Shown: positions 1,178 through 37,900 of the stretch, one piece after another
Numbering within the stretch: the stretch's first letter is position 1
How the letters are laid out: the number at the start of each line of letters is the position of its first letter
Assembly: GCA_965112155.1 (NCBI GenBank)
Contig: OZ218112.1
Source of the DNA: Podarcis liolepis
Taxonomy: Eukaryota
Length of the DNA stretch: 64,000 nucleotides
Direction: 5' to 3' (one strand)
Notes under the pieces: model-generated
Told to the model about the DNA's origin: nothing
Seen by the model: only the letters and a program-made list of their open reading frames with translations
Databases searched by the model: none
Position numbers and translations under genes: made by a program

Positions 1178-1822
1178 ATTACTGGCCCCAACAACATCAC
1201 ACATACCATCTCGGGACTATTTAATTGCTCATCGTCTAACATTGTGTATGCCATCAAATGCCAACAGTGTCCTTCAGCTCTCTATATTGGACAAACAGGC
1301 CAAACCTTACGCCAAAGAATAAACGGACATAAATCTGACATCAAGAATCACAGAACAGAGAAACCAGTAGGAGAACACTTCAATCTCCCAGGACATTCTA
1401 TACAAGATCTCAAAGTAGCTGTTTTACTACAAAGGAATTTCAGAAACAGACTGGAAAGAGAAGCTGCTGAATTACAACTCATTACCAAACTTAAAACCAT
1501 GAAAAGACCTGGGCTTAACAAAGACATTGGATTCTTATCTCACTATACATAACTAAACCATTTCTCACCTTCTCACCCCTTGCCTTTTCCTGTAAGACCT
1601 ATTACAGTCGTTAAGAGTCGTCAATAGGCTCTCCCAGCTATCTGCCTATCTCCCATTCCCACCATCCTTCTGAGTAACACCCCTCCCCACCTTCTCACTA
1701 TATAGAAGGATCTGGCAACTTCTATTTCAGTGTATCTGAAGAAGTGTGCATGCACACGAAAGCTCATACCAAGAACTAACTTAGTTGGTCTTTAAGGTGC
1801 TACTGGAAGGAATTTTTTATTT
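1178..1822 (+). mobile_element. Penelope-like retroelement, 5'-truncated: GIY-YIG endonuclease region plus 3' UTR
   Basis: ORF 1244..1552 (YAIKCQQC..LYIGQTGQTLRQRINGHKSDIK...E.QLI...GLN) is a PLE-type GIY-YIG domain; 13-bp TSD tgcctagcaagtc at 1165-1177 and 1823-1835. Confidence 0.9.
1732..1769 (+). ncRNA. Minimal type I hammerhead ribozyme motif in the Penelope-like element
   Basis: gtat-CTGAAGA-a-gtgtgcatgcacac (stem II)-GAAA-gc-TC-atac: conserved CUGANGA/GAAA core, stem I gtat/atac, predicted cleavage after C1765. Confidence 0.8.
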
Positions 1823-4167
1823 TGCCTAGCAAGTCTGTTAGGGATTGTGGTCCTACTCATATAGATACTGTACCTTCCATTCTAGTTCTGTCCTAAGGAC
1901 TGATGTTTTCTTTTAAAATTCCTGTTAGCCAGAGAAGTGAGAACTTCAGGATGAAGATTATAGCCAATCAATGTGGCAATTTTTTTGCAGTTGCTGCAAG
2001 AAATAAGAAAACCAAGAGAGGATTTCCTAAAGCTGAATGCAGTTCAGTGGGCCCTCTGAATTGCATATCTTACAACTACCACGTTGTATGTCTTTTGAAT
2101 TCTGCTTTTGAGGTGCATGGTTGACCTATGTTTAGCACTCCTTGTTAAGATTAGAATCTTAACATCATTAAGGTGGGGCTGACATCTTATTTGGTACCAT
2201 AGAACTGGAAGAGGGTCTTGTTTGATGCAATAAATGATGGCTATGCTCTGCCTGCACAGTCGGAAGCAGCAATACTGAATACCAGTTGCTGGAAACCACA
2301 GGGCAGGAGAGTGCTCTTGTGTTCGAATCCTGCGTGTGGGTTTCCTACAGGCATCTGGTTCGCCACTGTGAGAACTGGATGCTGGACTAGATGGGCCACT
2401 GGCCTGATCCAGCAAGCTCTTCTTCGGTTGTCAAGTTATGAAGGGAGGCACAAAGGGTGGGGAAGCCTCCAACTCAGGGATCACATAACTCAGGGGTCCC
2501 CAGCCTTTTGGGGGCCTGTTGGCACAATTGGAAAGTTTTATGTGGGTGTCAATCACAAATGGGTGTTGTGGGGTGTGTGGCATAACACAAAATGGCAGCT
2601 GTGGGGGTATTATTATTTATTCATTATTACTATTGTGGTATGTTATTGCCATAAAAAGTTACTAATATTCAATAAGTGTGCCTGATTCCATTTCTCCTTA
2701 TACTGTGACTGTGAGTTCCACAGTTAAACCCTAGATTAAATGGAAAGTAGTAATAATGTGGCTTGTTTGTTTGCAATTAAACATAAGCCTGTTTTCAACC
2801 CATCATGAATGCTCTCTTGTACCATGACACCCAAGAACAGGTTATTTTCTTAATTGTGTCACTTCTGAAGGTTGTTAATGTTGTTGGAGTTCAACTCCCA
2901 TCAGCCTGGAATGATGGAAGTCATAGCTTAAAACATCTGAAGCCAGAGTTTCCCCCACTTATGTCATGTTCTTAAGAGTTACTGAGAACTGATTTTTGTA
3001 TGTCAATTCTCAGTGACAGTTGAATATAGAGAAAACTGAAAAGTGGGGTGGGGTATGCAGTGGTACTTGACATATTGGGAAATGTGGAAAATCAGCATCT
3101 GGAGGGAGACTTTTTACCACATGTGAGAGATGTGTAGAAACAAGAAAGAAGTTACCGGTTATAGGAAGATAGTGGTAGAAGTAACTGTAGAAATGTTCCA
3201 ATCTAAACTATCCAGTGGCGTGCTTGCAGAATTATGAGCGTCAGGAGAAAAGCTAGTGGATAAAAATGTGTGCTGAGAAGAAAGTGGAGAGATTTCTTCT
3301 TCCTAGCCCATAATACTAGAACTCTGGGACATCCAATGAAGCTGACTATGGGAAGGACACAGGAGGACACACTTCTTCACACAGTGGGGAACCTCAGGCT
3401 GGAGTGTGGGGGGGTGTCAAATGTGGCCCTCCAGGCCTGTCTGGCCCTTGGAACATTCCCCAGGCCACACCTTTACAGCGTTGAGTGCTTTTGCATGGTT
3501 GGAATGTGTCCTTAAGCACCTGCTAATACTGTCTGGAAGGAAGATCATGAATGCTCTCTTGTACCATGACACCCAAGAACAGGTTATGTGTGTGTGTGCA
3601 CGTGCACAAGTGTGCAGAAACCAGCCTACTATACTAAAGGTGACAGCTGCATTTGTTTCTCTGCATGTTTTTATCTCTGGATCTGCTCACCACTGGGATG
3701 TGTCCCTCAGAACGTTGCCTAGAATATAATGCAGCCCTCAAGCTGAAAAGGGTTCCTCTCACCTCTGGCCTAAACAGTGCAAAATGCAAGAATCTGCCTT
3801 ATTCCGAGTCAGACTAATGGTCCAACTAGTTGGGGGTTTACACCAACTGGCAGACGTTCTTCCCAGAGTATCAGGTAGGGGACACCTCCAGGCCTACCTG
3901 GAGATGCCACCTTTTGCAGTGTAGAGCAAATACTCTATACTGAACAGGTGGTCTCATACTGTCAGCCAGGGGGTGGTGGCCCGCCAAACACATTGCCTTT
4001 ATGCTGGTAAATAATGCTTGACTCTGGAACAGATTTATTTATTTATTGATTTATTTATTTCATTCAATTTATGTCCTTCCGAAGGAGCTTAGGGTGGCAT
4101 GTACAATACTGTGTGGCATTCCTGTCTTGCTTGTTGGCTTCCCATTGGGGCATCTGGTTGGCCACTG

Positions 4168-6395: not shown

Positions 6396-6684
6396 TCAGC
6401 CATGCTCCTTCCACAAAACCAGGTGAATACTGTGGTCTGGCATGCTGGTGGCAAAGACCAGGCCCATGTCATTTTGACCATCCAAACCGTCCAGCCAATC
6501 CATTTCCCCGGCCAGGAAGCTCGAGCCCCTCTTTGACTTTCTGTATTCCGGCAGTGGCCAGCGGCTGATCAGTTTCTCTGTCCTCAAGTCCATTATGTAC
6601 AGGTAGTGGTTATCAAACAGGAGGGCAAAAATGTCGCCGAAGCCCAGCAAGGACAAGTTCGCAAATTCAGGAGGTTTGATAACC
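6396..6684 (-). CDS. FBXW2: FBXW2 last coding exon (to stop TGA)
   Basis: ORF 6396..6656 extended to the acceptor gcag| at 6684; ends HLVLWKEHG*. Confidence 0.96.
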
Positions 6685-9600
6685 CTGCAAGGGAAGAGAA
6701 GAAACAGACCACCACAAATATCAGAAGAAAATGATGCATAGAATGGAGAGGTGATCTTTTAAATGATTTTTTTAATGGTGTTGATATGATCTAGATTGCA
6801 GTCTGCCGCTACTTAACCAACCTGGCATCCCGGTGTCTTGCAAGTGACATGTTGCCATGTAAATGCAAGATACCAAAGGAATCCCATCTGGAATGGCACC
6901 AGTCATTCAAAACCTGACTCTTACAAGTTATCACTGAGATTGCCAGGGTATTTGGCTTAGCTTGCCCACTTTAGACCTCTTGGCCAGACCTCCACAGCAC
7001 ACTCCGGGAACATGACTCAGGAAGCATCAACACTTAAGTTTCCTCTATTAAGAAAAGTGTTTACTGGGTTAATTCCACATGAGTTGGAAATAGTGGCTCA
7101 TGCCTCACAATGCACCTGGCTGAATGTGGTAACCTTCTTATCTATGTCACTGGGCAAATTTGGCAAGCAACTTTGTGTACACAGTAAAAGGGTTCACTTT
7201 ACAGTATAAAGTGTGGATCGTGATAGGAGATTGCAGGAATTGTTGAACGCCATCTGTTGAACTATGGATTTGTGTGAAGAGTTTTTGAAAAAAATAATCT
7301 GAAAAGGAGAACTGCCAGACTACGGAACTCGGAGAACTCAGTCAGTTGCAGGATTCTGAGCAACCAGAGTTAGAACTTGCTAATGGACTTTGTTTCAGCA
7401 AGGACTTTGAAGTACAGAACCCTCTCTGGGACCAGAGAGAAAGAAGCTTTTCTATATATAGTGTGTGTAAATGGAGTGTGTGTTTTGCGTCTGCCAACTA
7501 GAACAGCTCTGCTAAAAACAACTGTTTCATATTGGTGTGTTTAATTGCTTTACTGAAGCTTCTGTGGCACATACACAGAGAACAAGAATATACATACATA
7601 TGCGTGTATATGTATATGTGTGTGTGAGAGAGAGAGAGAGAAAGAGAGAGAGAGAAGAAAAAGAAGAGGAGGAGGAGGAGAAATACAGATCCCAACAACC
7701 TCTGCATATGTTGGCCTCAAATCCAGACTGTTTACCTGTGGATATCGTAGCTGGCGAAGTCCCACTGATACAACCCGATAGCTGAACTGCAGACAATGTA
7801 TTTGCCATCGAAATGAAGCCGAGGCTGGAGAGAGATGCTGCGGTCTTCTGAGACGGTAAGGGTTTTTAAGCACTTGCAGTTGATCTCTCTCCCAATGGGC
7901 CAGATCTGTAACAATACAATCAACCAATGATTGTGACAACAGGGAAGGATAAAGGGGGTACACTTTGCTAACATGGTGAAGTCTCCCTTGCAGGCCTTCA
8001 AGCCAAGAACTCCCTCCCAGAACCCTGCCTCTCTCTTGAAGGAAAGCTCTCCCACTTCAACATCTGCAAAGCCTCATGGGTGCAGCTCTTTTTAACCCAC
8101 AGTTGTGATGGGAAAAGTTTGTGTAACTGCCTTTCAGCCTTGCAATTCAGCCCTTTCCTCCCCGTCTAGTTTATAAATTTCTTAGGGCAGAGACCTGTAC
8201 TTTTATTTTTTGCTTATGTTACACTGCAAAGTACCATGCACACTAATGATGATGATAAAACTGGACTGTATCCCGTGCTGGTTCTACCCAGAATAGGCCC
8301 ATTGAAAATAATGGGTGTGATTATTTTAGATCCATTAATTTCAATAGGTCTACTGTTAGAAGAACTTAGTTTGAGATAACCCATTATTACTATTGGGTTG
8401 TATGCAACAACATTCTACTTGGAGTAGACCCACTGAAATTAACGTACCCACGTTAGTCATGCTAAGTAGGTGCTTTTACGCTGGCCTATGGCTGCAATAA
8501 ATATTCTTTACTTTCTTCTGCTACTGAAGGGAAGCCTCGTCGTCTAAAACCTGCCTCTTGACATGCTTATGAAAAAGCCTTCTAACTACCAAGCAGCTGG
8601 CAGACAATGGGCAGAATAATTCACCCCTTAGGATCCATTAGGGCGAAGGATCACAGAGCATGTGCTTTGCAGGCAGAAGTTCTCATGTTCAATCCTCTGG
8701 CATCCCTAGGTAGGGCTAGTAATGTCCCCTACCTGAAACCCTGGAGAACTGCTGCTGCCAGTCAGTGTGGACAATACTGATAGCCAGCTGAATACTGAAG
8801 CCAGCCAACGAATACTGATAGCCAGCCAATACTGAAGGCACCTTCCTAGTCAGATTCAGATTTGTACAGATCTAGTCTAATCCAGCAAAGGCTTGTGACT
8901 TTCCAGAATTTATTTACACCTGCAATTCCCCCTGATTTCTGGAGCTCCATGAAGCTGAGACCATACATACCTTGATTTCGTATTTGTCTGCGCTTAACAA
9001 AATGTAATCCCCAGGGCTGTGCATGAGAGATTTGACTTTGCACTTCTGCAAGACCACCTGCAGTAGGAACAAAGTGTGTCTAAGGCTTGAGGCAAAATGT
9101 CAGACAGGTCACTAAAAAAAGCACTGCAATGTTTGTTCAGATACATTTATGTCCCGGGAGGTAAAAATCTTAACTCACAATAAGAAATGCCAGATGCTGC
9201 TCTATTATGTCCGAGAAAGAGAAGCCACAATGGAGGCTGTGCACTGTCTCCAACTAACCCACTGTGCAGCTGGATTTTGTTGTTCTTACTTCAGTACAGT
9301 ACGTTCAGTACGTTCTGTACAGAAAGATTTTGTTCTTACTTCAGAATGATCTCTGTTGTTACACATTCTTACACAAAATGATTTCTGCTGTATTGAAACC
9401 CACTTTTTCCCATTAAGCTTATGGCACAACCACCTGGGTCTCATGCCCTGCTTTAAGGCTGTGTAACTGAAACAACCACACACTGCTTCAATGTTAACCC
9501 CTGTTTCCATCTCCTCCTTTTTCCTTGTTTCCCTATGTTGAATTTTTGTAAGCTTCTTAAGAGCAGGGATTGATCCTCTTGTGCTCTATAAAGCATCATG

Positions 9601-12600
9601 TGCACTAATGGTATTACAAAAAGAAAAAAATATAGAATGCTGCACGCGCATCATGGTTTCCTCCACATGTTGGGAACCAGCAACTGTAGCTCTGAGTACT
9701 TTCTTTGCATGCAGAATGTCCCAAGTTCAATCCCTGCCATCTCCAGGTAGGCCTGGGAGAGACGCAAGGTCTGAAACCCTGGTGAGCCACTGCCTGTCAG
9801 TGTAGGCAAACTAGATGGACCTAGTGGTCTGACTCAGCGAAAAGCGATTGCCTATATTCCTCCATGTGGTAACCTTGCCCTCTAGCACCAGATATGCAAA
9901 ACTGGCAAATAACCTTTGGCCTCAAATGGTTTGTAGTTAAATTTTAGCCACTGGGGTGTAGCAGTTAGAGCACTGGACCTGGGAAACTAGAATTCAAATC
10001 CCCGCTCAGCCACAAAGATGACCTTGGGCCAACTGCTATCTTACAACCTAACCTACCTACCTACCTACCTCACAGGGTTGTTATGAGGGTAAAATTGGAC
10101 AAAAGGAGAGAACCACGTATGCCACCTTGAGCGTTTTGAGGAAAGGTGGGATATAAATGCAACTATTAATAAATGACACCCAGTGCAAACTTTAAACAGG
10201 AAGGGAGCTAACCCAGCCTACCTTTGTGACCCATTCCGTGTGCCCTGTTAGTGTATTGAGACACACTCCCGTTGATAAGGCCCAGACCTTCACAGTGAAA
10301 TCCGCTGAGCCACTGACCAGGATGTCGAGCTCGTCATTGTAATCAACACTGAAAACTACAAAAGCCAAAAAAGAAAAGGGAACTTTAAAAGAGATTGGCC
10401 ATGCTGATCTCTATACCAAGTCAGATCAAAGTAATCATGCAGTTATTTTGGGATGTGCGTGTGTGCAATTGTGAGTCACACTGCAGTTATACTGATTTGG
10501 CTTCCTTGAAATTTAGAGTTTTCCCTTCCATGTAATAGACGTGTAGAATTTACAAGTTTGGAAGGATAGCCAGGTAAACATACTTAGGTAATGCCTACCC
10601 AATGATTAGAGCTAGAGAACTGCAGCCAGGGGAGGGGGTTCCCTTGCCTAGAAAGCTGTCTTATTCTGGGCCAGGCTATTGGTTCATGTAGCTCAGGACT
10701 ATCTGCATGAGTTGGCAGCGGCTCTCGAGGGTTTCAAACAGGGAGTTTCTCCCAGCCATATCTGGCATGTGTGACAGAGACTTGGTTAGATGAGGCAGAT
10801 GGGCCTGTTCTTGTCGCTGCTTGTCCACCAGGTTTCTCTTATACACAGCAACCCATGTCATATGGGTGGGGTTGCAGTGAATTTTAGGAAACCATTAGCT
10901 TACATCAGGCGTCCTGTTGGGAAAACCCAGTTTTCTGAGTGCATGTTCTGGAAGTTGGGCAATACAGGCAGTACAGGATTCCTTTTGGAGTACCGACCTC
11001 TCCACTGCACCAAGATTCCCTGCCTGAGCTGCCTCAGGTCATGGTGGATGTTCTCCTGGAGTCTACCTCTTTCCAAATCTGAGTGACTTTATCTGCAAAA
11101 ACAGCTTTGCAAACTCATTGCAGGAGACCTTTTTGCAGATAAAGTCACTCAGATTTGGAAAGAGGTAGAGTCCACCATGGGAGCAGGGCCGGGAGAGTGC
11201 TAGAGTCCTTTCTGGTCAAGTTGCATGGGATCAATTCCAATCTGTTACCTCCAAGGATGTGGACAGGCTGCTTGGACAAGTGAAACCAACCACCTGTCCC
11301 CTTGCCGATCCTGGCTAATAACAGTGAGCTGGGAAGGGCTGGCTGATGGGCTCTGGGGGCTGGTGAGTGCTTCCCAGATCCGCTGAAAGAGTGGCCGCTG
11401 AGACCATATAACACTGGTCCTGAAAGACCTACATTGGCTCCCAGTATGTATCCAAGCACAATTCAAAGTGTTGGTGCTGACCTTTAAAGCCCTAAATGGC
11501 CTAGGCCCAGTATCCCTGAAGAAGCATCTCCATTCCCTTTGCTCAGCCCGGACACTGATGTCCAACTCCTAGGTGGTTCCCTCCCTGCAAGAAGTGAGAT
11601 TACAGGGAACCAGGCAGTAGTGGCGCCCGCCCTGTGGAACGCTCTCCCAGCAGATGTCAAGGAAATAAACAACTACAGTGGTGCTTCGCAAAACGAAAAG
11701 AATCCGTTCTGTGATTCTCTTCGTCTAGCGGTTTTTTCGTCTTGCGAAGCAAGCCCATTGACGGATTAGCGCTATTAGCGGCTTATCTGCTGATCGGATC
11801 AGCTGATCAGCGGCTTAGAAAAAGGGAGGAGGGGAAAAAACCCGCAGGAACTCACAAGGCATTGTCGCCTTGCGAAGCAAGCCCATAGGAAATTCATTTT
11901 GCAAAGCACCTCCAAAACGGAAAACTCTTTTGTCTAGCGAGTTTTCCGCCTTGCAAGGCATTCGTCTTGCGGGGCACCACTGTATCTGACTTCTGGAAGA
12001 CATCTGAAGGTAGCCCTGTTTAGGGAAGTTTTAAATGTTTTATGTTTGGTTGTGTTTTTAATGTTCTGTGGGAGCCGCCTAGAGTGTCTGGGGAAACCCA
12101 GCCAGGTGGGTGGGGTATAATTAATTAATTAATTAATTAATATTATTATTACTATCTAGCAATGCCAGGAACTGAACCAGAGACCTTCTACATGTAAAGC
12201 CCATGCTAGAGTCAGTCCCAAGCAACATGGAACGGTGTAGAGTTCTGGTTGCTTCATCTCAGAAAGGATTTTATACAGTTGGAAAAGTTTCAGAAAAGGA
12301 CAACTAAAATGATCAAGGGGATGGAGCAACTCCCATGAGGAAAGGCTGCAACATTTGGAACATTTTAGTTTAGAGAAAAGGCAGGTAAGACCTTATAGAA
12401 GTTTACGAAACTATGCATGGGGTGGACAAAGTAGATAGAGAAGTTTTTCTCCCTCTCTCGTATCAGGAAGTTGCACCTGCTGTGGACAGTGATGGCCACC
12501 AATTTAGATGGCTTTGAAAGAGGATTCGACAAATTCATGGAGGAAAATGCTCCAAATTCATGGAGGAAAAAGTCCTGTTTGGCCACTGTGAGAACAATAT

Positions 12601-15600
12601 GCTGGACTAGATGGGCAACTAGCCTGATCCAACATGGAGAGTGAGTAGGGTAGCTGCCAAACTAGGGGAGATGTCTAGCAAGGCTAGATTGCAGACAGAT
12701 GTTGCTTGAAATGGCCTAAAGGGCTTCAGGCATTCCTGAGGACACCAACACACCTGCCCCCGTGTGGCCTCTGAAGTGCTGGGTCTTAGTTCCTGAGCTC
12801 CACTCCCAGCAGGCTACCGTGTTGTCAAAGGAGCCTGTGACCAGCTTTTGTTCATCAAACTTCACTGCTGCACAGGTGTGGGTCTGGATCCCATAGATGC
12901 ATTGCCCTGTGCTCACATCCCATAGCTTTGCAGACAAGTCATCTGAACCTGCGGCCGCAAAGGAAGAAATGAAGTGTGGTTTAGTGGCTGAGAAGTCAGA
13001 AGGTATCCAACATGACCCACAAAACAATGGCATCCAACCAGGACCTGGGAGAATTGAGTTCAGATCAGCCATAGTTTCACTACTTGGCCAGCCACTACTT
13101 AAGCTTCTCAGTGACCCATCTAGAAAGAGCCACTGGTTAGAGTCTGTCTCATTGTTTCCCAAACATCTGATCAAAATTTGGAGGCCTATTTTTTTAACAC
13201 CTGAAACTGTTTTACTTTCATAACAAATGAAAAGAAAAATAACCCATTCAAAAAGGAGTGTGTCCTCAGTGTTTCTGTATTAGTACTCGTTCCACTCTGA
13301 TCCCAAGGCATGCCTAGACCAATGGCTCATACATAAATGCAACAGGGCAAATTGGGTGGAGAGGGCAAGTCTGCCACAAAAGAGTGCCTTGAATAATCTG
13401 ATCATCCCTAAAACCACAGTGCATAATTACCTACCCAGGGGCTGAATGGAAGGAGGGAAAGTTGAGCACTCAATCGCACACAGAGACACAAAGGGCAGTC
13501 TTCTATTCAGGCAAGTTATTGGGCACATGGGAATTGGCACTTTAGCTGTTCTTCTATAACTTGGAAATTATTGGCACAAGAAAGCATTAAAGTTGTGATG
13601 TCAAACTTTCTTAAAAAGGTATCTGAGATCCCCCCCACCCCAATTTTACAATGAAAAAGTAAACCCTGCTGACAGCTCTCTGCTCCCAAAAGTACCCCGC
13701 CATGATATTATTCTGCTGAAAATTTTCTGTGATCTCCCCCAAGTTCCCTCAAAATTGATCTATTATTTCTGTGCCACGCTCACTTTGATAAGTGGCCCCT
13801 GGAGGATTGCACATAGGTCAATGCAGCCCTTGGCCCAAAAAAGGAAAGACATTCCTGCTTTAAAACTATTTTGAATATCTTGGGGGGGGGGGATATCTGC
13901 TTGGCATTTAAAAATAAAACAAGCTTCTAGTTCTTATGCATGCAGGAGAAAACTCAGAAATATATCCATGCCTTTCCTGTCATTGACAAGGATTTCCAAG
14001 CCTGAGTTTATGATGCAGAACAAGTGAGCGCAATTAAGCAAACAAGAATGCAGATACACTTGTGGCACATAATTGATTCCAACTCAATCATTTTGATTTG
14101 GGAAGAGAAGTGATTGGTGCAGAACAGAAAGTCCTAGTCATGCAAAATCATTAGCCTCCAATAGTGGAAGATGAAGGTTTTGGTCACACGTTATAGGATC
14201 TGTGACAATTAACTCTCGCTAGTAGGAAGTCTCAAAGGATTAAAAACTTTGGCTTGCAAATAAATCCTTCACTTTTCCAGACAGAAATGATTGTTTATAT
14301 TAGGTCAGCTGCTTTTTGTATAAACAAATCAATGCTGCCTGTCCCATTGCGGCCCTTTCATTAATGGATAATTTGAGCATTTGGTTTTAAGCCCCACCCT
14401 ACCACCAAAAAGCCACCCTCACAGGGAGATCCACACTCCACAGCAGATCCATGGTAGGGGAATTTGTAGGGAAGACTGGTGTGAAGCCAAAGGAGCAGCC
14501 TCCTCCTCAGAATGTATTGTAGGTTTTAGAATGCTGAAGAGGCCTTTCTTTAATATTAGCACACATTGGCTGTGTTCAAACATCACAATAAACTATGGTT
14601 AACACAATAGCAACAAGATTAGCCTACTCCTAGGCTCATATGCTCTGCACTCTGGTGCAAGGAAACTGGAAATTTTTGCTGCTTATTAGCCAGAGTTTAG
14701 CATGACACATGAACTCTAAAGTGCGGCTACACATAATTTCTGTGGAAACATGCCAACTTTATAAACAGTGGTCTGATGCTGGTTTGTTGCAACATAGTAA
14801 AAATGAATCACAGTGTATTGGGTTTCTACAAGATGGCAAGCTGCAGTTAAATAGAAGCAAAAGCTTTGAAGCTTGTCCTTGAATCTGTCAGTGGAGACCA
14901 GGCAAGCTTGGGGAGGGGCACCAGGCTTGTTCCTATCACAACAAACCATAGCTTATTGTAGTGTAGCATACAGACACTGCATGCTTTTATGAAATACATT
15001 TCTACAATGTTAGTGAAAGCTTGTGGCTAGAACAAGGTCTGGGATCCGTGGGGCCTGATCATGGCCTATGGTGAGCTGTGAATGACCAAATCTCCTATTC
15101 AGATCTTGGTCTTGCTATAACGTCACTAAGCAGCTTTAGACAAGCCTTCCAGCCTCAGCCCACTCCATGAAGCTGAATATTGGAAGAACCAGGACAAATA
15201 AAAAAAAGTACTATTTCATGTGGTGAATAGTTGAACTATGGCACTTGCTGCCACAGGAGGCAGTGGTGGTCACCAACTTGGGATGCTTTCAAAAGAGTAG
15301 ACAAATTCATGGAGGAAAAGGTTCAAAATAGCTATGTTCTGCCTCCACAGTTGAAAGCAATAAAGCATCAGGATACCAGCTGCTGGAAACCTCAGGAGAG
15401 GAGAGCGCTCTTGTGCTTGAATCCTGTCCATGTGTATCCTGCAAGCATCTGGTTGGCCACTGTGAGAAGATGGACTAGATGGGCCATAGGCCTGTTCCAG
15501 CAGGGCTCTTCTTATATATATGCCACCTCCCAGTAATATTACTTACTCTGGCAATTTATATACAGGCAACTTCCCAAGTGTGTGGGGGTTGCATTCCGGG

Positions 15601-18600
15601 TCATCATGTGTGTCGGCAGGGCACGCATAAGCCCTCCCTCCCACTTCTGGGGCTGAAAACTGTGCATGCATCAGTGGTCATGTGTTCCTTGAACGCGCAC
15701 AAAATGGGAGTTGCTTGTACCAATTAATTATGATAGTCCCTGAGTGGTGTGCAAACAACTCCACAATAAAGATAAAAATCAGTTAAAACTATAAAATCAG
15801 AATTCAGTTAAAACACCTGCTGAAATATTTAAAATGTCTTCTGTAGGTGCTGGAATTTCAATATGTAGGGTGCCCTGACCTCCAATGAAAGGGAGTTCCA
15901 TAGTATTTGGACTACCATGACAAAACATTTCTAAGGACACCTTAAATGTCTAATGAACAAAACAATCTACAAAGTAGTAGGAACCCAATGATAACATTAT
16001 GTAAGAATAAAAACAGTAGATAAAATCAACATGTAAAACAGTCTAATGTGGATTTAACGGCCTGAGGAAATGTAGGAATACTTCTCCTGGTACTAGAGAT
16101 AGTAAATATATGCCTTCTTCAGGAATGAGATCTAAAGGCAGGTGCCACCATTAAGAAGACTCTCTCCTCAGTTGGAAACCACTTCACCCAGAAGGTAGGG
16201 TCTTTGAAGATTATCTCAGCACATATGCCATCTCGGGTTGAGTTCCTGAAGGATCACCTCCTCCAGGTCCAAGACATGTACAGCTTTGAAGGGAAAGCAG
16301 TGCACAACCTGGTGATTACAGAATAAATGATGCAAGGAGGGAGTTGCAGCCTAATATAGGGAAAGAGATAGTAAGGGAACATCTAGCTACTTTAAATGAA
16401 TTCAAATCTCCAGGGCCTGTTGAGCTGCACCCAAGGGTACTAAAGGATCTTGCAGATGTAATCTCAGAACCTCTGTCTATAATCTTTGAGAATTCTTGGT
16501 GAATAGGGGAAGTCCCTGTGGACTGGAGATGGGGAAATGTTCTCCCCATCTTCAAAAGGTGTGGGGGGAGGGGAAGCCCAGGTAACTACCTACTGGTGAG
16601 CTTGACATCAGTAGAAGGAATGGTCCCAGATAACTAAACAGTTGGTGAGCAATTAGAAAAAGATGCTGTGATTACTACAACCCAGCATGGGTTTCTCAAA
16701 AACAAGTCATGCCAGATGAATCTCATGTTTTTGATGAAGTTCCCAACAGCCAGAAAGCTGTTAAAATGTCAAAAAACGAAAAAGCCACACAAACAAAAAC
16801 GCCAATTTTTTAAAGCAAAAACAAAAGCTCCAAATATCACCTCTGTGTTGCATGGGTGCTTGGGACTCAGCAGGAAGCCTCTGATTAGCAGCAGGGGACT
16901 CAATTTACAAATGGAACACACTCAACAGGAAGCAGAACATGTTCCGCTTCCAAGGCAAAATTCACAAACCAGAACACCTACTTCTGAGTTTGCAGCATTC
17001 TATTTCCAAGTTGTTCATAAACTAAGCTGTTCTAAAACCAAGGTACCACTGTATATGAAACTCCTGGGGATGGTTATTGGGAGTTACGGGTTGAGGTGCA
17101 GGCCTCGGCGATGTATTTACCTCGCCCGGTCCGGTCCCGTGTGAGAGACAGACCACAACAGCAACTTCACCCAGAGTTATGTCAAACATCTCCTTCTGAT
17201 ACCTCTTGAGTAACATGTTGCCTGGGAAAAACAGATCTTCCTTCCTTCCAGACAACTGATGTACATTCCTTCCTAATATGGCCTTGAACATTGTTGTCTG
17301 ACATCTGGCCCCAGTAATCAACAACTCAGCCTCACTGGTGTGAAGTGCAGAGGGTGAATATGAAGCCCCTGGAATTTTTTAAATTTTTTTTTTTGGTATA
17401 AATATATAATATACATTCCCCACCTCTAAGACTGCCAATCTTCCAAATGTCATCCACCCTTCACATTTCACATTTGATCCCCAATTTTACATACAACCAC
17501 ATCATAAATAAATAAACACAACCCATCTCTCTTCTTTTCTGTCTGAAAGTTTCAGAAGCCATCAAGATGGTATATACTATGGTCCATCCTGTCCCTTTCA
17601 CTGTTCTTTTTCCAACTTTAACCTTCAAGGGGGTGGGCCAATGTAATCTCAACAAAATCTGTATCTCCTCTCCATCCTCCCCACTAAACAAATAAATCTT
17701 CCTGGAGTCCATCTTGCCAGTCCTCTGTTCCATTACCTCCAACTCCAGTCAGTTTTCTCTCTCTTCCGAGTGCTTAACAGACAGTCAATCCAGTTGTTAC
17801 CAATCTTTTCTTCTTTACTATTTTAATTTCATAATACAAAGTTCCAAGGAGTGGTCAAAATCCCTCAAAAGTCTTGAGGGTAGTGATTTTAAGTTTAGTC
17901 TGCCATGCACAAAGAAGGGTTAGGATTTGTGGACTAAAATAGAATGTAATTTATATCCTATCAAATTAATTTTGTAACAAGTCCACGTTTCTTGTAGTAA
18001 AATAACATCAAAAGATTTAATAAAACTAATAAATTCAGGGTCATTGGCCTTTTTCCTCAAACCCACAATGTTCCAGGAAAGGATCTGAAACCTAGGGTCA
18101 CTTGGCAGTCATTTGATTTCAATTAAGTGATCCCATCAGTTACCATTCCCCCTGCCCTTTTAACTATTCCAAGGAATCAACACCCTAACATCTTCACTAC
18201 AGCAAATGGTTAATTGCCTGTCCTTGCTGGGCTTGCACTCTCCCTTACGGAGCAGGTTCACTGTTTGGGAGTGCTTCTGGATCCAGCTCTGTCACTGGAG
18301 GCTCAGGTATATACAGTGGTTGGAAGTGCCTTTTACCAACTGTGACTGGTTTAACAGCTATAGACATTCCTGAACTGGGAAAGTCTGGCCACAGTAGATC
18401 ATGAATTGGTTACTTCAAGATTGCAATATGCTCTATGGGGGGCTTCCCTTGCACTTGATCCGGAAGCTGAAATTAGTGCAGAATGCTGCAGCACAATTGC
18501 TGACAGGAGTGAGGCCTTGTCAGCATATAGTGCCTGTTCAGTGATCTGCACTGGTTACCAATTTGTTACCAGGCCAAGTTCAAGGTGTTACTATCAGTAT

Positions 18601-19665
18601 ATAATGGCCATAATAACTTGGGGCCAGTTTACCTAAGAGATCAGCTTACCCAACGTGTGCCCACTTGACCGCTTCAATCAGCGGAAGTGGTACTACCATA
18701 AGTGCCATATAATACCCATTCTGCATTTGTAAGAACTCAATCATTTACTGTGGCAGCACTTACACTTTGGAACTCCCTGCCTATTAATAGCAAGCAGCTG
18801 CCTTCACTGGATTCTTTTAGGTGCCTGCTAAATATATTCTTGTTTAGACAAGCCTACCCAGATGCTTAGAAAGTTGATGTGAGTTTTAACTTGTTTTAGC
18901 ATTTCAAAGTTTTGTGTGTTTTAAAATACAGGCACCACCCCTTACACGTATTCGACTCATGTGCAACCGTATACACGCACCGGGAAATTAAAAATAATTC
19001 TATTCAAACCTGGAAATGGCAGGAGAGTCCCCGTGGCTTGCAAGGAGACCCTCCCTGGAAAACGATTTTTTCTATAGATTATGAAGGCTTGAAAAAGGCG
19101 CACGGGGGCCCTGCTGCTGCTGCTGCACCATCATGCTCACCAGGTGAGAACTGGGAAAGCCACTTCGCAAGTCCTGTCTGTGCGGCTTTCCCAGCCTCTC
19201 TGGTGAGGAGTGGGGGCTCCCCTGGAAACAATCCCTTCCATATCCACCTAATGAAGAACAAAAGCTTTAAAATGTGTCAACAGGGCTGCAGGTTCCAAAT
19301 TCATGTGTGGGAAGCTGAAAGGCAGGAAGCTGTTCCTTGCAGCGGGCTCAGCTGCGCGGCTTCCCTATCCTTCCTGCCAAGATTGAAGGTGAAGAGGGGA
19401 GGAAGGGAGTCTTCGTTACCCTTTAGATTAGAAGGGAAGGAGCAGAACAAGGGCAAACAAAAGTGGATGGGGGGGGGGAGAGAACAAAAAACAAAGCCAC
19501 TCAAGCTCCCCACTTACGCACATTTCATTTATGTTTTTTTTGGGGGGGGAACGTAACCCCCACGTAAGTGGAAAGTTGCCTGTATTATTGTACGTGTTTC
19601 TAGGTATAATTTTATTGTTTTATCTTTTGATGTATTTTGAAAAACCAAGTGTATACATTTTGTGA

Positions 19666-19698
<33 letters not shown>

Positions 19699-20277
19699 GT
19701 GACTTCCTGGCTCGCAGCCCTCTCACACACATACACAACACTAATTCTCATTGCACCACTACACCCAAGCCATTTGGGCCATCCTACCTGTACAAAGAAG
19801 TCCATCTTTATAGTAAAGTGCGTACACTCTGGCACTGTGTCCAATCAGTGAGGAGGTCTCAAAGGCTTTGTGGTCCTCTAGTTGCTTCATCCTTAAGATG
19901 GCCTTTAAGTACACCTTCTTCCAGTGCAAAGCATCTTGGACAGAGTCATCAATCTGCCAGCCCAGTTTCCTACAGGCAGTCTGCCACACCTCCATACAGG
20001 CACTTATGACCTTGTTCCATTGCTTAGAGACGAGGCAGCACGTGAGTAAGGTCTGAGGGTCAAGCCATTTTAACAAATAAAAACTGAGTTCCAACGGGAG
20101 GAGTTTGAGGAAGTCCCGTTTGAGGAGGGTCTCTAGGTTATTGGAGAGGTGCCTGAGCTGGATAGCCCCACTCAAGCTAATCAGGTGATCCAACGACTCA
20201 TTTTTCTGCAAGTCCGTCAGAGAGAGAAACGTAACAGAAATATTATCAAGCCATGCTTCAAAGTCCTTTCTCTCCAT
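6396..20277 (-). CDS. FBXW2: F-box/WD repeat-containing protein 2 (whole spliced CDS, 6 coding exons, 454 aa)
   Basis: join(complement 19788-20277, 12754-12948, 10222-10355, 8971-9057, 7736-7905, 6396-6684) = 1365 nt. All introns are GT-AG with consistent phases. N-terminus [15 protein letters not shown]-box ([28 protein letters not shown]), WD40 repeats, C-terminus LVLWKEHG match vertebrate FBXW2. Confidence 0.97.
7590..7680. repeat. Compound microsatellite (TA/TG)(GA)n(GAG)n
   Basis: Direct reading. Confidence 0.85.
7736..7905 (-). CDS. FBXW2: FBXW2 coding exon 5 ([16 protein letters not shown]...[10 protein letters not shown])
   Basis: Within ORF 7732..8055; tacag| acceptor, AG|gtaaac donor; 170 nt. 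Confidence 0.95.
8971..9057 (-). CDS. FBXW2: FBXW2 coding exon 4 ([29 protein letters not shown])
   Basis: Manual translation; cag| acceptor, AAG|gtatgt donor; 87 nt. Confidence 0.95.
10222..10355 (-). CDS. FBXW2: FBXW2 coding exon 3 ([25 protein letters not shown]...GHTEWVTK)
   Basis: Manual translation (absent from ORF track); tgtag| acceptor, AAG|gtaggc donor; 134 nt. Confidence 0.95.
10770..12120 (+). mobile_element. Internally deleted L2 (CR1 clade) LINE
   Basis: Endonuclease remnant (GGVAVNFRK...LLEYRP), RT C-terminal remnant (LHWLPV..QAQFKVL), L2-like 3' end with AT microsatellite tail. Confidence 0.7.
11676..11982. mobile_element. Tigger-like MITE nested in an L2 3' end
   Basis: TA-CAGTGGTGC...GCACCACTG-TA; L2 sequence resumes on both sides. 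Confidence 0.82.
12754..12948 (-). CDS. FBXW2: FBXW2 coding exon 2 (WD40: [12 protein letters not shown]...FRGHTGA)
   Basis: Within ORF 12716..13174; gcag| acceptor, G|gtgtgt donor; 195 nt, phase 1/1. Confidence 0.96.
15563..15717. mobile_element. Short Tc1/mariner-type MITE
   Basis: TA-CAGGCAACTTCCCA...TGGGAGTTGCTTG-TA. Confidence 0.65.
16320..16735 (+). mobile_element. CR1 LINE RT fragment
   Basis: [32 protein letters not shown]...[11 protein letters not shown], with stops. Confidence 0.85.
17420..18090 (-). mobile_element. Decayed non-LTR retrotransposon fragment (APE endonuclease N-terminus)
   Basis: Minus strand reads [12 protein letters not shown]...[10 protein letters not shown]; clade not assignable by eye. 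Confidence 0.55.
18225..18900 (+). mobile_element. Decayed L2 3' fragment
   Basis: [15 protein letters not shown] and LHWLP-like remnants with frameshifts. Confidence 0.7.
18929..19582. mobile_element. Tc1/mariner-type non-autonomous element nested in L2
   Basis: TA-CAGGCA...TGCCTG-TA with imperfect TIRs; accounts for spurious ORF 18912..19556. Confidence 0.65.
19667..19696. repeat. (AATC)n microsatellite
   Basis: Direct reading. Confidence 0.9.
19788..20277 (-). CDS. FBXW2: FBXW2 coding exon 1 (start codon, F-box); exon begins at 20297
   Basis: ORF 19759..20277; acceptor cccacag|GTAAAT at 20297; donor ACAG|gtagga at 19788. Confidence 0.96.
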
Positions 20278-21199
20278 AAGGTTATGGAAACATTTACCTG
20301 TGGGACATCAAAATACAGTATTAGTTCTGCTCAAAAACCAAATATGAACATCTTAAATAAAAAAATAAAAAACGACACACACTGCCTCAGATGCACTTCA
20401 AACAACAACATGGCACAGGGCGGTTAATATAGAAAAATCAGCAATGTACAATGTGAAGGAGAACTCCCCTTTAAACTGAATGTGCTGAGCACAACATGCA
20501 AAAACTGTGGGATTTTTGTCTGTCCAGTGCAAAATATAGTAGTGCCTTTGAAAGCCTATGATTTTCAGCTGCTAGTCTTTATGTTTGGTTTCACATTGCA
20601 TGATCAAAGGAAAACAAGGGACCCAATATCAATGTGACATCAGGTGCCTGACAGGTAGGTGTCTCAGATCTCCTCTCAGACTTGGTCCAAAAGGTTTGGG
20701 GGAAGGCAAGACTCTGGACTGCTAGCCCCATCCAGGTCCCAACTCCTGGTTTAGATTTATCAGAGGACCTGTCCAAAGACAATTGCTGAATGGATAGCCG
20801 AGCAGCAAGGAGTTGGATCACAATGCATATTGGTTCCACCCAACTTTCTTCCCTACCTAGCATTTTATCCTACCTAGCATTTCAATGGGAAAGAGGGCGT
20901 ATTTACCTTAAGTAGTTGTCTGTATTATCAGATAGTTGCTTAGCAGGTAGCTGCCAATTGTCTTCTTGCTCCTCAGAACCCGACAGGGATTGGGATTCCT
21001 CTGGGGCCATTTCTTCTGTAGGTGTAACAAGAACCATATAAGTCACTGAGGCCAGATTTTCTCCTCCTCTCCAGTCACTGCATAGTGCTCTAATGATTCC
21101 CAAACCCACTACTGTTACCACTCACTTTTGACCACACCTTAACTTTCCAACCTAATTCATCTGATCAAGGGATATTTCTTTATAATGACTAGGATTCTA

Positions 21200-24112: not shown

Positions 24113-24281
24113 AGATTTTAACAGGTCAGACTATTTCTCTAGCCCAGTCTATGCTGACTGGTGGTAGCTCCCTAGAAAGGAAGACCCCTTCCACCACCTG
24201 ATATATGATTTGTTTTTCTTTTAAGGTAATTATGACAGCATTCAACCTGTCTAGAACATTCTACATCCAAAGCATATAGTA

Positions 24282-24460
24282 GATAGGTAGCCGTGTTGGT
24301 CTGCCATAGTCAAAATAAAAAATTCCTTCCAGTAGCACCTTAAAGACCAACTAAGTTAGTTCTTGGTATGAGCTTTCGTGTGCATGCACACGAAAGCTCA
24401 TACCAAGAACTAACTTAGTTGGTCTTTAAGGTGCTACTGGAAGGAATTTTTTATTTTGAC
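24282..24460. mobile_element. Fold-back (palindromic) Penelope-like 3'-end insertion
   Basis: 24378-24458 is identical to 1744-1824; perfect inverted repeat 24309-24460; direct repeat ccaaagcatatagta at 24267-24281 and 24460-24474. Confidence 0.88.
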
Positions 24461-24749
24461 CAAAGCATATAGTACAACTACATTTGATGCTGGCCAAGGG
24501 ATCCCGCTTCAGGACACACCTGTGACCGGATAGTGTTCACACGTGAAATTTGCCTCTGAAAAGCCTGGGGTGGGGAAAACCCCCATGCTAACTAGTTCAA
24601 TATCGGAGAACAAGAACAGCCATATGCGACATGCAGAGTCTTGTGGCATCAGCTGGGCGGTCTTCCAGGTGTTACTAGACTACAATTCCCCTCATCCCTA
24701 GCTAGCAGGACCATCCAGCGACACCTGGGGAGGGACCTGAGGTTGGGAA

Positions 24750-31900: not shown

Positions 31901-34900
31901 AGATGCCGGTGATTGAACCTGGGACCATAAGCATGCAGAGCTGATGTCCCACGATAGAGCTAGGGCCCCCTCCCTTAAAAGTAAAGTAGGATTCTAGTCC
32001 TCAATAGTCTTGCTGAATCAAACAGGAACATAGGAAGTCACCTTGTACAGAGCAGGGGAGAGGTGTGTATGTCGCCTCCGAACACCTTGCAGGATAGGTC
32101 AGATATAAATGTCATTTATACTGTGCCATCATTGCGTACACCAAATCTTGGGTTAGTTAATGTGATCGAAAGGGGCAGGAATCTACAATCAGAAACTGTT
32201 CAGTTGTGAGAGTCAGTTCCTTTTTTCTTTTTCTTTTGCAGTCTATCGTAACGCTGGGTGCTGCTGCAGGCGGGATTCTGGGGGGATATGTCGTGGATAA
32301 ATTTGGCCGGAAGCTTACCCTGATGCTGTGTGCCATCCCATTCGTTTTTGGCTTCACAATCATAATCTCAGCTCAGAATGTCTGGATGCTTTATGTGGGC
32401 CGGCTACTGAATGGCTTGGCCAGTGGGGTAACATCCTTGGTGGTCCCGGTAAGAGATGGTCTGCCCTGTCCTTTCTCATTGCAGTTTTGTGGAAAGAGAG
32501 CCATCTGCTGAATGCCAGAATCTGCATTTTACTGATTTGGAGACCATTGACCCATCTAGCTCAGTATTATCTATTAAGGGGATGGGGAATTTCAGGCCCA
32601 GAGGCCTAATTGCACTGTTAATTAGGGAATTTCAGTACTTGATTCTGATTTTGTCACCTGTATCTACATACACCTGTCTCTGATTGCCTTGATTCTATAA
32701 GAAAAACAGGGATACACTACTGACCTGCCCTCTCTTTTTTCTTGTTGTATTGAAAAAAAATGCAAAATTCTGCAAATGCAAAAACAAATAAAATATATCC
32801 TTTTCTCTGTATGACTTGAACAAGACTCCCTTCCCCTTTTGTCCATGCTGTAGGTATATATTTCTGAAATAGCCCACTCCAAAGTTCGAGGGATGCTAGG
32901 ATCGTGCGTTCAGCTGATGGTGGTGACTGGCATCTTGGGAGCTTATATAGCAGGTACACCCATGAGGCTCTGTTGTGTTCTTGGGTTTGCACATTTTCTC
33001 TTGCACACATCATCGTGGGATACAAGTACACCAACCAACATCTGTGGATGGAGTTGCCACAGAATGTTGTGGGAAACTGAGTGGGAAGAGGGAGTGGAGT
33101 ACAGTGGTACCTCAGGTTAAGAACTTAATTCGTTCTGGAGGTCCATTCTTAACCTGAAACTGTTCTTAACCTGAGGTACCACTTTAGCTAATGGGGCCTC
33201 CTGCTGCTGCCACACTGCCACCACGCAATTTCTGTTCTCATCCTGAAGCAAAGTTCTTAACCCAAGGTACTATTTCTGGGTTAGCGGAGTCTGTAACCTG
33301 AAGCGTCTGTAACCCGAGGTACCACTGTACCTTGAAAGGAGAGGGTATGACTGCCTGCTTTCATACCTTTGAGAATTTCTGCTTGGGTGGAAAGTGTCCT
33401 TGAATTCTGATCATGCCTCTTGCTTGCCTGAATGATTGGTAGAGAGTTGGTGTGTGAGAATGTGTGCAGATACTAGCCTACTGTACAAAGGCAATATCTG
33501 CATTCCTTTCTCATGTTTGCCTCTAGCCTTACCCACCACGGGCACCAACAGGCACTCTGTCTTAACGGAATACATCACTTGAATGCTGGGGGAGCTGTTT
33601 GCAGCTATAACGTGCACCAGCTTGCATTTAGCCCTCTGGGCATGACAAAAGCTGCCAAGTGTCCTTTATTCCTTGCCCCTAAGAACGGCTCTTCTTCTTT
33701 TGGGTCTCCTCCCTCAGGCACAGGGCTGGACTGGCGCTGGCTGGCCGTACTGTGTTCCGTCCCACCATGTTTTATGCTTGTACTTGTGGCTTTCATGCCC
33801 GAAACGCCTCGCTTCCTGCTGAGCCGGAATCAGCGGCCAGAGGCCATTGCTGCTCTGCAGTTCCTGCGGGGGCCCCTGGTGGACCATGAGTGGGAATGCA
33901 GGGAGATTGAAGTGAATGCCGAAGGACAGGTAAGTGGAGCCGGAACTATACTGAAACCGGACACGTTCTTGGGTTGCAAGGGTGGGAAAGGTGGCAGGAG
34001 AATAGATCTGCCTCTTCCCCCTGCTAGCTCAGCTCTCTCCAGCTTTAGGCTTTTCAGGGGAGGAGGGTGTAAGTCTGAAGTATTTGCCATCTGCTCCTCC
34101 TGGTATAGGGATGCAGGTGGCGCTGTGGTCTAAACCACAGCCTAGGGCTTGCCAATCAGAAGGTCGGCGGCTCGAATCCCCACAACAGGATGAGCTCCTG
34201 TTGCTCGATCCCAGCTCCTGCCAACCTAGCAATTCAAAAGCATGTCAAAGTGCAAGTAGATAAATAGGTACCACTCCGGCAGGAAGGTAAACGGCGTTTC
34301 CGTGCGCTGCTCTGGTTTGCCAGAAGCGGCTTAGTCATGCTGACCTGGAAGCTGTATGCCGGCTTCCTTGACCAGTAAAGCAAGATGAACACTGCAACCC
34401 AAGAGTCGCCCACAACTGGACCTAACGGTCAGGGGTCCCTTTACCTTTTACCTCCTGGTATAATCTCGCAGATGCTAACTGCCCCCTGACATTCTTTTCC
34501 TCTGCTGCTGAACTGCTCAGTAGTCAACCCCTTGCTGGAACTGCACAGGAATCAGCAGCAGTTTTGCAAACGGAACAGGGGGTGGCCTGGTACAGCCACT
34601 TACAGTCATGTCCACCCTGTTACAGCTGACCTGCAGGGGGGCTGGGGTGAGGTCTGCTTTGCCACTTTGCATTCCCTGTGGCCAGCCAGCAGGATTGAAC
34701 TTGCTGCTCGGCAGCTGATGAGTGGGGAAGGTTCAACCCTTCCCTTTGTAGGGGTCTGCATTGTCATCGTGTTTCTCCCTGCAGGGAACATAGTGGCGAA
34801 GCAGCAACTGGCAGCGCTGAACTCTCTGCTCCCCAGCTGATGAGTGAAGGGTGCAATCCTCCACTCTGCAGGGGTTTGTTTTGCTCACGTTTCCCTGCAG

Positions 34901-37900
34901 GGAACGTGCTGGCAAAACAGTACCCAGCAGGATTGACATCAGCTGATGGGCAGGTGGGCATGGTTTTGGTGAAATGGCCCAGCTGGCCAAATTGGTTGTC
35001 CTCATGGACCAAGATTCCTAGTTCAGTCCCTGACATCTGCAGCCAGGGTGCTGGGATCTCTACCTCAGACCCCAGAGGGGTACAGTTGCCCCTCAACACT
35101 GAAACACTGGCTACGTCTTCCTTTGCAGGAGGAGCTGAGTCTGGCCGAGTTTAAGAATCCAGCCATTTACAAGCCATTCTTCATTGGTATCGCCATGATG
35201 TTCTTCCAGCAAGTGTCGGGGATCAATGCCATCATGTTTTATGCAGAAACCATCTTTGAAGAAGCCAAATTCAAGGTGGGGGGCTCCTCTGTCCTCTTGA
35301 AACCTTGGATGCAGCCATTCTCATTCATATCTTGGTGAGATGCCCAGAATTGGACACAGTATTCCAAGTGTGGTCTGACTAAGGCACAATAGAGTGGTAC
35401 TATTACTTCCCTTGATCTTCTGTTGATGCAGCCTAGAATAGCATTAGCTTTTCTTTGCTGCTGCATCACACATTTTCAAATATTTGAAGATTTGAGAATA
35501 TTTGAGATTTTTATTTACTTCTTGCTGTTCTGTGTTTTCAGGAGAGTGGTGCTGCTTCCATCATTGTGGGATCCATCCAAGTCTTTTTCACTGCTGTGGC
35601 TGCTCTTATTATTGATAGAAAAGGTCGAAAAGTCCTTCTGGTCGTATCAGGTATTGCAGAAAAGCTACCCTTCCAGTGTGAAGTGTAGGATTCTGTGCCT
35701 TTGCAAGTTAATTTAATGAGGAACACCATGAACAGCTGGATAAAATTTTCTGGAGGTGGATGTCCAGCAAGGCAAGCTTTTATGTGCTTGAAACAACTAG
35801 CTTTAGGGCCTTAGGTCAGTGGATGGACATAATCACCGGCAGGACACACTCTCTCTCTCTCTCTCTTTGTGCTTGTGTGTGTGTGGGGGGGGGGAGGCTA
35901 AGGATGCTCTGATCCAGCACTGCTCTTGTTACATGCACTCTTGTTCCCAAACAGTATAACTAGGTGTTCTGTTAACTATTTATCTCATCTTTCCCAGGGT
36001 TCATTATGGCTATCAGTGCTGCCATCTTCGCGGTCTATTGCAAAATGGCTCTCCCAGTCCCCATCAACTCCTCCCATGCCAACCCACCAAGCTCCATTCT
36101 GAGTGCTGCTGTTGTGGAAGAAGAGCACCACCTTGCGTGGCTGGCGGTGTTGAGCCTGGGCCTCTTCGTCATGGGTTAGTGGGCACTTTTGCTGTGGTTG
36201 CTGTACCCACAAAAGCTAGTCTATATAGATCCATCCACCTAGGGAATTCTGGGTCTTTTGGAGCCTTGAGGAGTTTCCCAGCCACATAGTAAAGGTTGAT
36301 TATGCTTTGACTACGTGGATGCTTCCCACACCAGAATGCCCTCTCTGCTGCTGCAGCAGCAGCAGGTGATGCAGACAGAGGAAATACACATGTCGGAAGA
36401 GTCCTGTTTGATCATGACAAAGCCCTTGATTCCTCCTCCTTCGCTGGAGTCCAGCTTTTTTGAGGTCAGATTAATGACCTGCTTATTGGTAGCCTAGTGC
36501 TTGTGGAGCATAGACCTTAGGGGTAGGGAAACGTTCTTCAGCCAGAGGGTCCCATTTGGGGGGGGGCAGTGTTTTGCAAGGGTCATGTGCTGGTGGTGGG
36601 TAGGGCCAGAGCAACACATGTTCAGCTTTACAATAGGCTGGTTTCTACACACATATTCAGACACCCCTCTCTATCCTCCATCCATGCAAGCAAGTGGCAT
36701 GATCTGAGTTCAATGACACATTCCGGCCAGGCAAAAGTGTGCAAGGAGGGTGTGGGTCCTGGGGTCTTGAAAGCTAGGTGGAGGGGCCTGACGGGGGCTC
36801 TTTTGAAGATGCTGTTGAGGGAGCCTCCCCCTGGGTTGCACAACCTCCTCCACATTGCTGTTGCTGCTGGCTGTTCGCTTGCATTGAGCTGCGCTACTGC
36901 TCAGAAAGAGACAACATATTGTGTGAGTGGTGGCGGATACCTCTCCTCCTTACCATCACTGCTTGCTGACTTGGAGAAGGGCAGGCAAACAGGAAGAGGC
37001 AACGAAGAAGGAGAGCAGCAAGGTTGGGTGGCTATGGGGGTTGTTGTGTACCTGCTGGGGTGTGGTCTTAGATTCTTGCCAAGCAATGGCTACCCCCTGG
37101 TGCCAGTCCTGGGAATAGAACTCCCGCCTCACTCAAGTCGACCTCTTAAACATAACCTTGCATTATTATTTTCAAGTGTGTTTACCCTGCTCTTCATCCA
37201 AAAGCCTCCCAGGGCAGCTTATGAAAATTGATAATACAGTCCCTGCAGTCTTACACACTGCATGGCATGTCATGAAAGGAAAGGAAAAGAATTGGGAAAG
37301 GAGCAGGGGGAAGCAAACTTGGCACTATTTCTTTCTTATAATGGCAGCTATGATGTGAAGAGTTCAGCTGAGCAGCCAAAAGTTGCTCCTCTTTAAGCTG
37401 AGCTGATAGAGTGGCACTGCTTCTCTTCTCCTCCTTTAGCCTAATGAAATGGCTGCTATCAAGTGACTGTTGATGGAGAGAAGAGCCCAATGGACGCTGG
37501 CTTCCAAGCTGGACTGATGAGGTGGCTCTGCTTCCCTTCTCTCCTTCAGCTACAGCGTGTTGCTAGATAACATGTGAGGAAGAGGGGAAGCCTTGACTAG
37601 TTGTATCTTTCTGGTTTCTAATCAGGGTTGCCTGTTCATTACAGTGGTACCTCGGGTTAAGAACTTAATTCGTTCCGGAGGTCCGTTCTTAACCTGAAAC
37701 TGTTCTTAACCTGAAGCACCACTCTAGCTAATGGGGCCTCCTGCTGCCGCCATGTAATTTCTGTTCTCATCCTGAAGCAAAGTTCTTAACCTGAGGTTAA
37801 CAGAGTCTGTAGCCTGAAGCATCTGTAACCTGAAGCGTCTGTAACCCGAGGTACCACTGTACTGACCTTGCTCAGTTCAGGGAAACATCTACTAACTCTG

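Follow-up and report, generated by a model that had tools for sequence, protein, structure and literature searches.

At positions 1732–1769 (plus strand) of a 64,000-nucleotide stretch of Podarcis liolepis DNA (the window, hereafter) lie 38 nucleotides with the letters of a minimal hammerhead ribozyme. The locus raises the questions of whether this motif is a genuine ribozyme fold, whether the copy found here would cut, and what role such a ribozyme might have in the element that carries it. An earlier note on this DNA had described the motif as a minimal hammerhead about 180 nt after the stop of a GIY-YIG open reading frame (ORF), and the sequence agrees with that description letter for letter and in its spacing. 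Stem I consists of 4 bp between 1732–1735 (GTAT) and 1766–1769 (ATAC). The core sequence CTGAAGA (1736–1742) is followed by an extra nucleotide, A1743, between positions 9 and 10.1, and then by stem II (1744–1748/1753–1757), whose 5 bp and 4-nt loop form a 14-nt palindrome (1744–1757) and include the G10.1-C11.1 pair (G1744-C1757). Next come GAAA (1758–1761), GC, T1764 and C1765. Stem III is absent, and positions 15.2–16.2 form an AGCT palindrome (1761–1764). The core is complete (C3 U4 G5 A6 N7 G8 A9 / G12 A13 A14 A15.1 / U16.1 H17), and the predicted cut falls after C1765, which is position 17 of the hammerhead and the site that had been proposed. All of these parts lie on the plus strand.

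Taken alone, the motif is not beyond chance. A loose hammerhead pattern has one match in the 64-kb window against 0.68 expected by chance, and the isolated 38-mer forms stems I and II at −6.8 kcal/mol, yet does not stand above shuffled sequences (z −0.44). An Rfam covariance-model scan, which had been suggested as a check, gave no support: hammerhead matches were absent at E-values up to 10, as might be expected with helix III missing. All three results would suit a hammerhead look-alike that arose by chance, but this explanation is extremely improbable. The motif occupies a characteristic position in the pLTR of its element; its extra nucleotide before stem II, its G10.1-C11.1 pair and its palindrome match the published consensus; and covariation across families, presented below, refutes a chance fold. 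The count of genome copies, another check that had been proposed, gave 9,879 exact copies of the 38-mer and 0 matches to a control. We thus take the motif to be real because of its pLTR position, its exact copies and its stem covariation across families.

The motif resides in a 5′-truncated, solitary copy of a putative Neptune-type Penelope-like element (PLE), 645 bp long (1178–1822, plus strand). All 645 of its 645 nt are identical to a full-length unit in locus L031, so the insertion is very recent, in agreement with the earlier claim. Identical 13-bp target site duplications flank it at 1165–1177 and 1823–1835 (plus strand). The match to the full-length unit starts at 1177/1178, and the first 2 nt of the 3′ duplication match the element too. 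No tandem or inverted partner was found at this insertion site. Positions 1178–1552 (plus strand) hold the last 124 codons and the stop of a 910-aa RT/GIY-YIG ORF (Pfam GIY-YIG, E 1.2e-6), with the RT absent; the stop at 1550–1552 is 180 nt upstream of the motif, and 270 nt of element follow the ORF. An uninterrupted ORF of 102 aa had been reported here. The frame is indeed open, but its size and status were misjudged: it runs for 126 codons from stop to stop, 124 of them within the element, reaches 102 aa only if counted from a GTG, and is a C-terminal remnant of the 910-aa ORF, not a gene. The copy closes with a T-rich 3′ end (1810–1822, plus strand), which is the shorter of two end sites used in the family and stops 6 nt short of the position of the next unit's ATG.

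Full-length relatives elsewhere in the genome are arranged head to tail as units of 3,008 bp, whose ORF of 910 aa is open. In these relatives, as opposed to the stub, the ORF includes RVT_1 and GIY-YIG domains, a CX4CxxC linker at residues 770–778 (C770-X4-C775-XX-C778) before the endonuclease, and internal cysteines (CQQC) at 814–817. The hammerhead lies in the pLTR, where it follows the stop of one unit and precedes the ATG of the next by 62 nt. The family has the hallmarks of EN+ PLEs, with a single ORF that joins RT to a C-terminal GIY-YIG domain, tandem or inverted pLTRs and an optional 30–40-nt tail. A CX2-5CxxC linker is described as a mark of the Neptune and Nematis clades in the account of bioRxiv 2021.04.23.441226, and the linker, a trait shared with Nematis, suggests that the element is of Neptune type. 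Unrelated long open frames occur beside full-length or long family copies at L038:462-1859 (466 codons) and L036:6982-8001 (at least 340 codons). The window also holds a second family insertion at 24277–24461, a fold-back stub with the stem II palindrome at its centre, whose arms end at the two 3′ end sites, one each; direct repeats of about 13 bp flank it, and the CUGA half of the core is absent.

The family is both large and young. Beyond the exact copies, the genome contains 14,517 matches to a relaxed core and 19,019 matches to a 26-nt anchor downstream of it. The 99 sampled copies diverge from the reference unit by a median of 1.7%, and 29 of them match it exactly. The window copy agrees with the full-length unit even where almost every sampled copy departs from it (24/24 at position 1665, for instance), which places it in the youngest subfamily. 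With about 10^4 identical copies, the intactness of the motif is inherited; it shows youth, and not selection at this locus.

Evidence on selection instead comes from older relatives, by the stem covariation that had been recommended as a further check. The alignment joined the window motif to 29 older matches (15 of one 30-locus set and 14 of another), leaving out members of the young family, L158 and L174, which have another length, and two matches without a locus. Over nine stem pairs, 74.8% of cells are paired, compared with 56.6 ± 2.1% in shuffles and 18–47% in slid controls, and two-sided changes occur in eight of the nine pairs, including all four in stem I. The search patterns themselves prescribed the core, the G10.1-C11.1 pair and position 1.1, and independent covariation events are few because the aligned rows represent no more than three or four families. 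The hammerhead fold is real, since in older families stems I and II have been preserved by two-sided changes. Within the young family, the core differs at 7/860 positions, versus 37/1,035 at +5 to +15 and 54/2,679 at +42 to +90; this contrast is weak evidence, because the flank differences are mostly subfamily sites that reflect common descent. At loci L044-L073 and L151-L180, at least two much older hammerhead-bearing families persist in decayed form, as rare stubs whose stems differ.

The motif is therefore a minimal type I hammerhead, of a kind already described for animal PLEs, and the earlier identification is borne out by architecture, pLTR position and covariation. Its architecture matches the minimal hammerheads as set out in PMC4209133, with which it shares the type I topology, a 4-bp helix I, the extra nucleotide that separates position 9 from position 10.1, the G10.1-C11.1 pair, a palindrome at 15.2–16.2 and the absence of helix III. 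Thousands of mostly solitary copies and tandems of about 3 kb are likewise common to both, and such hammerheads have already been reported in Neptune PLEs and in turtle and snakes. Helix II has 5 bp and a 4-nt loop here, as a perfect 14-nt palindrome, compared with 7–8 bp in the Schistosoma families. The near-invariance of the present family (its thousands of identical copies) resembles the exception seen in D. virilis, unlike the usual variable sets.

We mapped the ends of the first 100 anchor matches on contig C1 (its first 3.9 Mb) relative to C17. The 5′ ends fall at −41 or further upstream in 32 copies, at −40 to −30 in 38, at −29 to 0 in 21, at +1 in none and at +2 to +16 in nine; 91 of the 100 copies thus cross the cut site intact. 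The peak corresponds to window positions 1725–1735, with its mode at −35 (G1730), and the 11-nt bins on either side of it hold 9 and 3 ends; inside the motif, ends occur throughout at a uniformly low rate. An inverted partner stands at the 5′ junction of 56 of the 100 copies, and the other 44 contribute 13 ends to the peak; the remaining 25 of the 38 peak copies have such a partner, and microhomology there blurs the end position. The 3′ ends form two groups, 57 at +42 to +65 and 43 at +86 to +104, which corresponds to the known 30–40-nt tail. In two older families (17 and 11 copies, in a rough, ungapped comparison), identity between copies fades about 5–10 nt upstream of the core.

Genome-wide junction patterns number 1,325 at −35, 43 at −4, 50 at +1, 4 at +4 and 17 at +8, and among the first 100 listed matches at −35, 28 are GT stutters and perhaps not junctions. 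Once fold-backs and one repeated variant are removed, +1 keeps 32 and −4 keeps 10 (4 at +4 and 17 at +8). Ends at the cut site amount to at most 50 of about 19,000 anchored copies, a small excess (about 0.2–0.3% of copies) that may reflect rare cut templates or microhomology of ATA with AT-rich targets. An extra G, the footprint of a cap, is not enriched at 5′ junctions among the first 100 listed matches at −35, counted by eye. Because 38 of the 100 copies start 30–40 nt upstream of the cut and none at the cut, the RNA that is copied likely starts just before the ribozyme and is mostly uncut.

Sequence features directly upstream agree with such a start. A predicted TATA-like box, TATATAGA (1699–1706, plus strand), stands 30 nt before A1729 of an initiator-like TCAGT (1727–1731, plus strand), with the start predicted at A1729/G1730, within the peak of copy starts. 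A box-to-start distance of 30 nt is the spacing of TATA/initiator promoters. In an older subfamily the box reads TATATAAG in place of TATATAGA, at unchanged spacing. Further upstream, at window position 1647 and some 80 nt from the predicted start, the youngest subfamily has CCTAT in the place of the CCAAT found in 21 of 23 sampled copies, and CACCC-rich boxes lie between there and the predicted start (1640–1692); these are possible promoter elements.

The same pile-up of 5′ ends could also mark the 3′ end of a 5′-UTR intron with a splice acceptor at TTTCAG (1725–1730), as in D. virilis Penelope. A pyrimidine tract and CAG do stand directly before stem I, the mode of the ends is at G1730, and there is precedent in the accounts of PMC4209133 and PMC2377424. 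However, intron-like forward joints were absent among those listed in four RNA runs, where upstream depth was about 20–100; peak copies join unrelated flank or an inverted element, not a common upstream exon; and the TATA-like box is exactly 30 nt before TCAGT in two subfamilies. We therefore think an intron improbable here. In another reading, which we find very improbable, the ends do not mark an RNA 5′ end but reflect RNA structure, with the RT halting or changing template when it meets the folded hammerhead or a long helix predicted to mask it. That predicted helix starts at 1729, the position of the peak, and 56 of the 100 copies have an inverted junction. An RT moving 3′ to 5′, however, would run into the 3′ side of these helices (about +4 or +39) and not into the 5′ edge, and the low, even rate of ends inside the motif argues against stalling there.

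RNA data came from the reads of four runs, added by species label. The two strands are about equally represented at the motif, 83–97% of reads continue into unrelated flank, and ORF depth is 0–17; as mostly passive read-through, the reads are uninformative on cleavage or start, and in these four runs they pile up neither at 1729 nor at the cut site. Read joints in two single-cell RNA runs return to L032 3892–3895 (equivalent to window 1729–1732) in 7 and 12 reads, and in run X15, 9 of the 12 contig joints shown return to the same equivalent positions. Joints at 1729–1732 are as expected if the RT jumps after running off the 5′ end of the RNA. Some read joints, at L032:3895-3957 and 3892-4083, make 63- and 192-nt tandems from the 5′ edge of the motif; such joints, of genomic or circular origin, would set two hammerheads in cis, as in retrozymes.

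We then asked whether the window copy would cut. Folding predictions give stem I a probability of about 0.6, which falls to 0.02 or less once downstream RNA is included, because the 5′ arm of stem I and the CUGAAGA core are predicted to pair with positions 1789–1804 (plus strand). With one hammerhead, no stem III and a stem I predicted to be masked, the window copy probably cuts little. We rejected a conserved switch built on the masking helix, which is predicted in the young family and inconsistent in older, decayed copies. An active dimer likewise found no support by folding, where two RNAs paired through the stem II palindrome, not through stem III. Overall, we consider it likely that a very young, high-copy Neptune-type PLE carries the 38-mer in its pLTR as a minimal type I hammerhead, and that this solitary copy is a passenger that cuts little, if at all, on its own.

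Hammerhead activity at this locus is unlikely to matter. Exons of an F-box/WD40 gene, presumably FBXW2, are the nearest host coding sequence (window 6396–20307, minus strand), and the coding region ends at 6396. As the gene is on the minus strand, a host transcript over the window copy would carry the antisense strand and thus no ribozyme. On the minus strand, the T-rich end of the element contains AATAAA at about 1821, a potential poly(A) signal that would end a long 3′ UTR.

For the family as a whole, the hammerhead could instead cut efficiently in vivo, as a tandem dimer or with the element protein, and be required by the life cycle, for example to release or circularise unit-length RNA, with cut RNA being a poor template for insertion. 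The fold is kept across families, the core has fewer differences than the sequence just downstream (7/860 against 37/1,035), tandem units exist, ends show a small excess at +1, and protein-assisted cleavage is reported for a lizard element in PMC11167929. Efficient cutting nonetheless seems unlikely, though a reading to be taken seriously: at most 50 of about 19,000 anchored copies end at the cut site, and 91 of 100 span it intact. According to the accounts concerned, hammerhead mutants left in vitro insertion unaffected (PMC11167929), and Naiad PLEs thrive without hammerheads (bioRxiv 2021.04.23.441226).

A life cycle with a mostly uncut template would likely run as follows. In tandem arrays, the end of one unit would supply the TATA/initiator promoter for the next, and RNA would start about 3 nt before stem I, making the hammerhead the first ~40 nt of a leader of ~100 nt. 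The element's RT would start at one of two internal sites, at about +58 or about +90, and would copy mostly uncut RNA, often off its 5′ end, leaving thousands of stubs of ~95–130 nt; longer copies, such as the one in the window, would stem from RNA whose start lay in a unit further upstream. For a cut after C1765, a second hammerhead would be needed, with the AGCU palindrome as a shared stem III, or the element's protein, or both. Such a cut would strip the capped 5′ ~37 nt, most likely from a minority of transcripts and outside the main path of insertion. In its most specific form, which we put forward tentatively and think unlikely, the vertebrate Neptune hammerhead would be the capped 5′ end of an mRNA, located 3 nt past a TATA/initiator start and kept in check by a helix further downstream. 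It would act as a decapping switch triggered by protein or dimer formation and not as a processor of insertion templates; the ~19,000 stubs would represent cases in which the RT ran off at the cap, and rare cut templates would account for the ~0.2% that end at C17.

Parts of this scheme have parallels in known systems. A single minimal hammerhead is described as inactive and dimers as weak in PMC4209133. One comparison is with Poseidon PAc of Anolis carolinensis (Frangieh et al. 2024, PMC11167929), for which the published account gives two internal RT starts, uncut RNA as the main insertion substrate, hammerhead cleavage only with protein, and no reads at the cut site. PAc and the present family are both reptile PLEs with a hammerhead, adjacent internal RT starts that give the 'tail', an uncut template and no RNA reads at the cut site, the reads here being mostly passive read-through. 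They differ in that the PAc ORF starts inside the hammerhead (the cut lies 26 nt past the start codon), whereas here the ATG follows 62 nt after the cut, and in the CX4CxxC linker of Neptune and Nematis, present here and absent, as described, in Penelope and Poseidon. In Pen2a of Adineta vaga (PMC3846280), the pLTR carries a predicted TATA box with an Inr-like sequence after it, and inverted pLTRs and an optional tail of ~31 bp occur as well; the passages of that account on its TATA/Inr do not connect them with a hammerhead or with a clustering of copy ends. In D. virilis Penelope, too, the start is inside the pLTR and the hammerhead in the leader, but according to PMC2377424 its internal promoter lacks a TATA box, and an intron of 75 bp ends at helix I; no intron was seen here in the RNA reads. 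Non-LTR retrozymes, as characterized in bioRxiv 2026.07.22.740005, share a PLE-derived type I hammerhead; they are short tandem arrays with a hammerhead per unit and no ORF, whereas the window copy is a solitary, truncated stub with an ORF remnant.

The ribozyme itself is ordinary for PLEs. The family offers a handle on the role of the hammerhead in EN+ PLEs, which is called unclear in bioRxiv 2021.04.23.441226: the genome combines open, full-length tandem units with about 10^4 copies that are nearly identical and allow their ends to be placed at single-base precision. These ends suggest that the start lies immediately ahead of the ribozyme and that the template is mostly uncut, which agrees with the in vitro findings reported for the lizard element. 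A literature search did not find copy 5′ ends tied to a start site before the hammerhead; supplements and Repbase notes may cover such a link.

Elsewhere in the window, exons of a sugar transporter gene (Pfam Sugar_tr) lie at 32161–35338 (plus strand), and a perfect 44-nt direct repeat occurs at 2802–2845 and 3544–3587, 742 nt apart.
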